Positions 4,882 to 6,812 of a stretch of DNA of 64,000 nt are shown in pieces. Position 1 is the first letter of the stretch. Every line of letters starts with the position of its first letter. Origin of the DNA: Protoeuglena noctilucae (lineage: Eukaryota); NCBI GenBank assembly GCA_958009085.1, contig OY253669.1, forward strand, positions 186,001 through 250,000, in the 5' to 3' direction. The translations under genes and the position numbers were made by a program. The notes under the pieces are model-generated. The model had not been told where the DNA came from. It searched no databases and saw nothing but the letters and a program-made list of their open reading frames with translations.

Positions 4882-6812
4882 TCACAGGCTCGTGGCAAAG
4901 TCGAGTCCCCGCGTTGCCAGGTCCGACGGGGCCATGGGAGTCTCCATGGCCACCTTCTTGATCGCTGCAAACTCCTCGGGCATCCCCGACTCCAAAAAGG
5001 CGCCCACCACCATGCCATTGTCCACCTAGTAGGCGCCCCACTTGCCGCTCGCCTTGTCCCCGAACACTGCGCAAGCAAAGGCACGCCGATACGCATTGCA
5101 CCCTCCCGCCTGCGTCCCGGCATTCCGATGCATTGCATGTGGCAATCAATGAAAGCGTGACTCACCCAAGGGCTCTCCGACCTGGCGCCCATAGAACTGC
5201 CACGAGAGGTGGAACTCGCGCGAGTAGAAGAAGGGCAGGTAGTCGTACGCGGGCGTGTTGCCGGGGTCCATGATGTGCGACACGGCGTGGGCGGCCGATA
5301 GACGAGCGTGGGTCACGTGCTCTTGCCTGCGGGGGCAGCGAGGAGCCGTGGCCGCCATGCGTCGGCGCTCCCTCGCGCTCGCGGGAGGCCGCCCTTCCCC
5401 GCAGCCGCCCTCACCTAACCAGCCGCCCGCCCTCCCGGAGCAGCGGGAAGGCCGCCACGTCGCCGACCGCGTAGACACCCGGCACGGAGGTGCGCATGTT
5501 GCCGTCGACCTTGATGCCGCCAATGGGGCGATCCGCGATCTCCAGCTGCCCCTCGAACAGGGACGTGCGGGGCCGAGCGCCCGCGCCCACCACCTGCGAG
5601 GAGCGTGCGGGAGGGTCGCACGGCGGACACCGGCGCCGGCGCTGTCGTGAGCTTTGCAAAGTCGCACGCGCCGCTCCTCACCACGAGGCGGCACGGAAGC
5701 TCCGTCCCGCTCTTCAGTTTGGCCCCCGCCACGTGCCCATCGCCGCCCACGTTGAAGGAGTCCACAACTTGGCCCTTGACGAACTTGATGCCCCTGCGCA
5801 CGTGCCATGGAAAGGCCAATGACACGGACCGCATCCATGCCAGCCAGTGACCCGCCAGCCATCGACAGCAACCTCCGCCTCACTTGGTCGCGTACACGCC
5901 CTCGTAGAAATCAGCCATGTCCCTGCTAAAGAGCCGAGACATCATCCGATCCTCTGGGAACACCATGGTCGTCTTGATGCCGTTGTTCGCCACGGCCGCG
6001 GCGCACTCCATGCCGATGTAGCCCCCACCCACGATCAAAGCCTCGCCCCCGCGCTCCTTGCACTCGGCCATGGCCGCCACTGCGGTGAACAGGGCACCAC
6101 CACGTCGACCGCTCGGGCAGGAGGTGCATTTCAATACATCCCAAAGCAGGCCCTGCCAGACCGCATCTGCTCCCACGGCAACGCACCGAGGGCATCGGCA
6201 TCCGCCACGTCACGGAGATAGTGGATGCCCTTTGCATCGGCGCCCTTGACGCCGAAGTCCGTCAACCGTGTCACGTCGCATCCGGTGGCGATCAGCAGGT
6301 ACTCGAAGCGTACGGCGAGCTCGCCCTCCGCCGTGGACACCGACAGCGTCTTGCCCGCCAAGTCCGCCTTCGTCACCGTTGCGCCGAGCATGCAGGTGAT
6401 GCCGTGCTCTTGGTACCACTCGGGCGTCTGCTTGTCCCCGCCCACTCCGACGCACGTGTGGAAGCCGGGGAGCCTCGCGGGCGACGTGGGGGCGAGGTAG
6501 GCCTTCGACAGAGCAGGGCGCTCGTACGGGGCCACCTGCACAGAGAACGGGGCAGGGGCTTATGCGGCGAGTAGGGCCATCGTCGAGCACGAATATGCAC
6601 ATGGAATCGGATGCTAGGCCAAATCTGTCTCCTCGTCGCGCGGCTCGGGAACACACGCCCCAGGGCCTCGGTGCTGTGATGCCGGCCAGACCGACCTTCT
6701 CAGAGCTGATGATGCATAACTCTGCATTCTTTACGTTTCGCTTGACAAACTCGCGGGCAGCGTAGCCCGCTGCGTTACCCCCGCCGAGGACCACGTAGCG
6801 AAACGAGGCCAT
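4882..6812 (-). CDS. MDAR: Monodehydroascorbate reductase, 7 exons, with an in-frame TAG at 5026-5028 in the last exon
   Basis: [73 protein letters not shown], then [27 protein letters not shown]...DFATSL ending in TGA at 4882-4884. Confidence 0.93.

Follow-up and report, generated by a model that had tools for sequence, protein, structure and literature searches.

The only MDAR gene in this genome carries an in-frame TAG, which probably arose by a recent nonsense mutation in this strain or clone and left the rest of the gene undecayed. The stop is present in genomic DNA, and transcripts of the gene are correctly spliced and for the most part retain UAG. A recent nonsense allele, which the preliminary description had named as a parsimonious option, fits the data best: DNA and RNA both read TAG, and the genetic code is standard. 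On this reading the allele is an ordinary one and the organism is a natural MDAR-deficient green alga, in which one could ask whether the enzyme is dispensable. Genome annotation will yield a truncated or split MDAR.

Positions given here are those of the window, the whole 64,000-nucleotide stretch that was analyzed. The MDAR gene is composed of seven exons on the minus strand (6812-4882), which join to 432 codons. A genome search found no other copy. Exon 1 (6696-6812) starts with the ATG at 6812 and contains the FAD-binding motif GGGNAAG; an RNA joint is found at 6533/6694. Exon 2 (6187-6535) contains YERPALSK and the long loop, and is supported by a match to Pyr_redox_2 and by RNA joints. 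Exon 3 (5884-6079) contains the NAD-binding GGGYIG and Glu198, and exon 5 (5415-5593) the GDVA motif, both identified by alignment. Exon 4 (5682-5793) was defined by exon joining, and exons 3 to 5 all have RNA joints. Exon 6 (5166-5326) contains Arg326, Tyr352 and Arg354 and the start of PF21791, as indicated by alignment and domain match. Intron 6 (5067-5165) is a GT-AG intron of 99 nt with an RNA contig joint at 5066/5166, and the acceptor is CAG in all six introns. In exon 7, the reading frame continues through 5029-5066 to the TAG at 5026-5028, codon 385 of 432. Another 47 codons in the same frame (4885-5025) encode the remainder of the MDAR C-terminal domain, and are followed by a TGA (4882-4884) located at the homologous protein end. 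The 3' untranslated region (4683-4881) is covered by RNA and has negative codon scores in all three frames. It had been proposed earlier that the TAG is in frame after splicing of the GT donor at 5165 to the CAG acceptor at 5067, that the 47 codons after it are open and MDAR-like, and that the upstream exons are without lesions. All of this was borne out: the RNA contig is spliced at these sites, the tail ends at the homologous TGA, and the TAG is the sole internal stop in the joined exons.

A domain scan found PF07992 on exon 2 and PF21791 across exons 6 and 7, the same domains as in plant and green-algal MDARs such as rice OsMDHAR (PDB 5JCI, 5JCL and 5JCM). The best solved-structure matches are plant MDHARs. 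The catalytic Tyr, the substrate Arg and the long loop (63-80) are present, with motifs at 320-326 and 347-354. In the alignment, Glu198, Arg326, Tyr352 and Arg354 are equivalent to Glu196, Arg320, Tyr349 and Arg351 in the rice enzyme, which uses Tyr349 and Arg320 (PMC5031999). Residues 1-384 are 49-59% identical to eight MDAR homologues. Green-algal MDHAR is usually encoded by a single gene, as stated in two papers (PMC7730656, PMC13571949), and a single copy is found here too.

The letter at position 5027 is supported by both DNA and RNA. The stretch or part of it is present in 14 public runs, six of them RNA; four were compared, and one RNA run is informative at the codon. DNA contigs of X1 (depth 9) and X3 (depth 321) span 5027, and A is the sole letter in both. 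The sample of X1 was also the source of RNA run X12, which contains a 1,529-nt contig with all six MDAR introns spliced. Over 4683-5066 this contig shows no letter differing from the DNA, and the codon reads UAG. Run contigs report the majority letter and drop rare variants, and the spliced contig thus indicates that the majority of the MDAR mRNA in the sample is unedited. The G expected at 5027 in RNA if the stop were edited was therefore not seen in the majority letter of X12. The coverage of run X13 is limited to 4700-4950 and 6300-6545, with the first stretch stopping 76 nt from the codon. No RNA-DNA letter differences are listed over 7.2 kb that includes several genes. X1 and X3 also show no differences from the window over the listed pieces across 3200-10400, introns included, which may fit one clone or very low diversity. 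Being identical to the window and possibly of one clone, they do not show how far the allele has spread. An assembly error at the TAG had been considered earlier; the probability of such an error, or of one in base calling, is now negligible, barring a systematic error common to all runs. Two DNA runs carry the TAG, the three runs X1, X3 and X12 come from three studies and agree on A, and an ORF in an overlapping frame that includes this base has exact matches on two public contigs. We found no evidence in favor of such an error.

Other features of the transcripts were observed nearby. Three of the 15 RNA-supported joints listed belong to GC-AG introns, at 7311-7448 and about 9070-9152 on the plus strand and at 10080-10239 on the minus strand. 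A 3,990-nt contig in X12 (about 7160-10400) crosses a plus-strand gene and a minus-strand gene ending at 9663, the latter presumably aspartate-kinase-like. This suggests overlapping 3' ends of convergent genes.

TAG is a terminator in this genome, and a genome-wide reading of TAG as Trp, or another reassignment of TAG, is excluded. No stop is found in the 150 WD40 repeats scored among 544 candidates. Among the 150 kinase matches listed of 167 found, two contain TAG, both intronic, and ten contain an internal TGA. At one kinase gene a short tandem duplication is located at an intron-exon junction (L003, G000:C6, about 1079930-1079800). A codon model was trained on the window together with 600 kb from other contigs (2.3% of the genome), with recovery of the MDAR stop as the positive control. 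No other real in-frame stop was found in the 600 kb, compared to 339 coding TGG codons. Nine additional stops from the model (eight TAG and one TGA) were rejected, each having a stop-free, higher-scoring antisense frame; the six-frame filter alone kept four of the TAGs in the sample, and their rejection is based on the antisense frame scores. Six of the nine lie opposite one ORF of 2,082 codons on the minus strand (L218, G000:C10:410001-420000). This frame is rich in Ser, Thr, Ala and Val and looks like a large repetitive surface protein, and its antisense mimics coding sequence with TAG stops.

TAG follows 16 strongly coding runs, one of which is the end of SufC at its homologous C-terminus. 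The eRF1 motifs GTS, NIKS, YxCxxxF and GGQ are canonical. In some ulvophyte algae UAR encodes Gln (NCBI table 6). The present case resembles theirs in being a green alga with an in-frame TAG; in contrast, TAG here is absent from coding frames elsewhere, ends ordinary genes and is accompanied by a canonical eRF1. A scan for other TAG-for-TGG positions, suggested in the preliminary description, yielded none in the 600 kb. A class as large as the fungal one, with about 70 edited stops, would give about one in 600 kb at the Fusarium rate, and the scan thus has little power against such a class. It does indicate, by the lack of a second nonsense allele in the 600 kb, that the strain carries no visible load of such lesions, a point against the nonsense reading.

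No tRNA with a CUA anticodon is found among those recovered, with 63 of 452 candidates scored and nuclear Trp and Tyr tRNAs likewise not among them. All six CTA-type pattern matches were checked. Two apparent CUA tRNAs, at C17:494362 and on the mitochondrial contig, are tRNA-Arg(TCT) displaced by one base. Nuclear tRNA genes are located about 0.4-1.5 kb from TTAGGG telomere repeats at C2:434, C7:454 and 615, C11:881, C17:940099, C20:885717 and C21:718005. The one at G000:C20:885717-885790 (L021) is a nuclear tRNA-Ile with the anticodon GAT; eukaryotic tRNA-Ile is usually AAT edited to IAU. The small contig G000:C24:1-15866 (L157, L158) is a tandem array of six units of about 2.3-3.1 kb, in each of which a 5S rRNA gene is encoded on the strand opposite to a tRNA-Ser(GCT).

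The host is a plastid-bearing chlorophyte, a marine green alga and not an ascomycete. The genome consists of 27 contigs with 26.3 Mb, and telomere repeats are present at all six contig ends examined. It includes a plastid contig of 101 kb and a 45-kb contig that looks mitochondrial. The best scores of PsaA are with entries that we take to be chlorophyte photosystems, and the named near homologues of MDAR exon 6 include Auxenochlorella, Parachlorella, Ostreobium and Bryopsis.

The column of codon 385 is highly conserved among MDARs. A search with exon 2 found 927 relatives; among the 120 listed nearly all are plant MDARs, with about 60% identity. The column is Trp in all 103 mostly plant homologues of 400-500 residues among the matches listed, and in all 41 distinct full-length metagenome ORFs. 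In sets containing closer algal homologues, 76 of 103 proteins allowed placement of the motif, with Trp in 66 and Phe in 10, and the column is therefore a conserved aromatic, not strictly Trp. The earlier assignment of the TAG to a conserved Trp thus stands with respect to a conserved, mostly Trp column, but not with respect to a strict Trp. Inspection of orthologs, also suggested earlier, found Trp or Phe and no stop, the homologues being distant ones: no stop is present in the 76 placed homologues, nor in the 73 loci covering the column among 80 metagenome loci examined. An in-frame TAG at codon 385 is found only here among all MDAR homologues examined. Nineteen apparent Glu residues in metagenome loci are gap misplacements, and the realigned full-length ORFs give Trp. 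DNA of a close relative was not found, the best metagenome locus being 65% identical. A degenerate pattern for the site has no matches in genome-contig and viral-contig sets, and an atlas search returned generic Pyr_redox_2 clusters only.

The probable history of the allele is a change of TGG, most simply, to TAG in the only MDAR gene. Ribosomes with a normal eRF1 would terminate at codon 385 and produce a 384-residue protein. It would retain both the FAD and the NADH domain as well as the catalytic Tyr and Arg. The AlphaFold model of the homologue P0138 (40-sequence alignment, pLDDT 90) places the equivalent Trp in strand 382-388, the fourth of five strands in the C-terminal domain. The catalytic Tyr belongs to the first strand, and strand 391-398 and three helices are located after the stop. 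Under the standard code the product would end inside the fourth strand, with an incomplete C-terminal domain. Since termination would leave half of this domain, the product is probably unstable or weakly active. The mRNA may persist because the stop is in the last exon, and the tail may be intact because there has been too little time for decay. Loss of MDAR may be tolerated because monodehydroascorbate disproportionates or is reduced by photosynthetic electron transport. Both routes are described as possible in one paper, in which plant MDHAR mutants have mild phenotypes and do not always lose ascorbate (PMC11066808).

The allele shares with natural nonsense alleles and incipient pseudogenes a single stop, one transition from the consensus codon, the same letter in DNA and RNA, an otherwise intact gene and a standard code. 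Unlike a typical one, it affects the only copy of an ascorbate-cycle enzyme. This speaks against a nonsense allele, as do the undecayed tail, the presence of an APX-like gene, which would produce the substrate of MDAR, and the lack of a recognizable DHAR-like gene among five GST-domain matches, itself a weak test.

Several other explanations were weighed against the nonsense allele. The 384-residue protein could itself be active and the stop a tolerated shortening. The mRNA is present, and the equivalents of all rice MDHAR catalytic and binding residues reported (PMC5031999), including Tyr352 and Arg326, precede the stop. However, in the P0138 model such a product would lose the last strand and three helices of the domain containing the catalytic Tyr, the TAG cuts PF21791 about midway, and termination at this position is seen in none of the 41 full-length homologues from metagenomes; we consider an active truncation improbable. 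A minor splice form using a donor at 5181 and the TAG as acceptor would give an in-frame 413-residue protein without internal stops, and the 5181 site (CAG/GTCGG) is similar to the donor of intron 1. This bypass is highly improbable, given that the RNA contig uses 5165/5067 and that the gene otherwise uses CAG acceptors exclusively. It would also delete 19 codons, corresponding to strand 3 and part of strand 4 in the P0138 model.

Correction of the stop by A-to-I editing, put forward in the preliminary description, is not supported, and conditional or minority editing of UAG to UIG that restores Trp, as in Sordariomycetes, is very unlikely. A stem of 11 bp with two G-U pairs and a 17-nt loop had been noted there, and folding predicts it as described and extends it to 13 bp with four G-U pairs (4997-5039, arms 5039-5027 and 5009-4997). 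The A of codon 385 is within this helix, with a pairing probability of about 0.93, and such a helix is predicted at 1-2% of the 180 A positions in the coding sequence. The fold is modestly stronger than expected by chance: over 107 nt the z-score is -1.82 and 9 of 200 shuffles are as stable, and in an 80-nt window z is -2.67, the second lowest of 36. The core consists of GGCGCC twice, palindromes made of the preferred Gly-Ala codons of both flanking strands. When synonymous codons were resampled, a helix equal to this one arose in 7.8% of 2,000 trials and the MFE was matched in 38% of 500; codon choice thus largely accounts for the stem. Quasi-palindrome correction, which turns a G-T pair into A-T, was considered as a source of the A and has no support, the next G-T pair being uncorrected.

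As in Sordariomycete premature-stop editing, a UAG occupies a conserved sense position of an otherwise intact gene, and one A-to-G step gives the consensus codon. In contrast, the host here is a chlorophyte, no G is seen in the RNA, and the 7.2 kb compared provide no evidence of transcriptome-wide editing. The fungal machinery is based on Tad2/Tad3. A search for A_deamin found one gene only, with no dsRNA-binding domain in three ORFs scanned; it is probably the tRNA editor ADAT1. A34-to-I editing of tRNA is expected here, since tRNAs Ala(AGC), Thr(AGT) and Arg(ACG) are present. According to one study (PMC10776026), the fungal correction is confined to sexual development, and involves 71 pseudogenes in Fusarium graminearum; RNA sampled in the field could therefore miss it. 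Nuclear A-to-I stop correction in green algae was not found in the literature, where most subscription papers were outside the scope of the search. If present, editing at this site would be the first such case found in the literature for a green alga.

Functional readthrough of the UAG by a near-cognate tRNA (Tyr, Trp or Gln), providing enough full-length MDAR from a stop older than the strain, is quite unlikely. It would be consistent with a single-copy gene that is expressed and spliced and has an undecayed tail with a homologous end. The tail has a codon score of 0.278, compared to 0.260 before the stop, and keeps 11 of 13 plant-invariant columns, compared to 144 of 172. Its identity to six algal-type homologues is 51-68%, compared to 49-59% for the part before the stop. 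Such lack of decay would be seen after a recent mutation, but just as well with continued use of the tail. The column tolerates Phe besides Trp, and an inserted Tyr might therefore work. Given a suitable context, UAG readthrough does work in a green alga: the tobamovirus-type TAG-CAA-TTA is leaky in Chlamydomonas (PMC7440625). However, no leaky context or stimulatory structure is found after the TAG: the 3' context is GUGGAC, a stable structure is lacking 5-10 nt beyond the stop, folding of the sequence that follows gives ordinary values (z -0.6 to -1.5), and the region has no Rfam match. The canonical eRF1 and the lack of a suppressor tRNA in an incomplete tRNA list also argue against readthrough. 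Gammaretrovirus-type readthrough uses UAG-G plus a pseudoknot, and the +4 base G is shared here. An open and conserved frame after the UAG is shared with programmed readthrough, but such a frame is also expected of a recent nonsense allele. In contrast to programmed readthrough, there is no CAAUUA, and the stop is inside a domain, not between a protein and an extension.

Called ORFs in public contigs provide additional information on the age of the stop. The tail peptide forms its own cluster of four members on 20 contigs, and all of them begin after the stop. P0124 is identical on 16 contigs, and P0125 starts at the GTG right after the stop on two. P0126 and P0121 are variant tails with two and three differences in 43 residues, on one contig each, with the same Met start. 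Three clusters were found for ten ORFs of the window, without variant alleles. The post-stop starts of P0126 and P0121 hint that a diverged lineage may share the stop; if so, the stop would be older than this clone and readthrough plausible. On the other hand, P0123 starts inside a tail that stays open upstream in its near-twins P0122 and P0127. A gene caller may thus pick an inner start, and variant starts after the stop need not mean a shared TAG. An unconstrained tail could explain the two changes in P0126 equally well. No read-through tail ORF was found among proteins of 33-105 residues, which comprised three candidates only. It is unlikely, on balance, that the TAG is old and shared with the P0126 and P0121 lineages and that the only MDAR is made by recoding of a mid-domain stop, either by readthrough with a near-cognate tRNA or by A-to-I editing specific to some stage. 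Such recoding would put ascorbate recycling under translational control, and a stop shared with diverged relatives would represent a rare case of endogenous recoding in a nuclear gene of an alga.

The last codons of the tail were also compared with relatives. A full-length MDAR would end with TSL (4885-4896), similar to P0122, P0123 and P0127. Many chlorophyte homologues end with SKL instead, which at the C-terminus is a peroxisomal signal.
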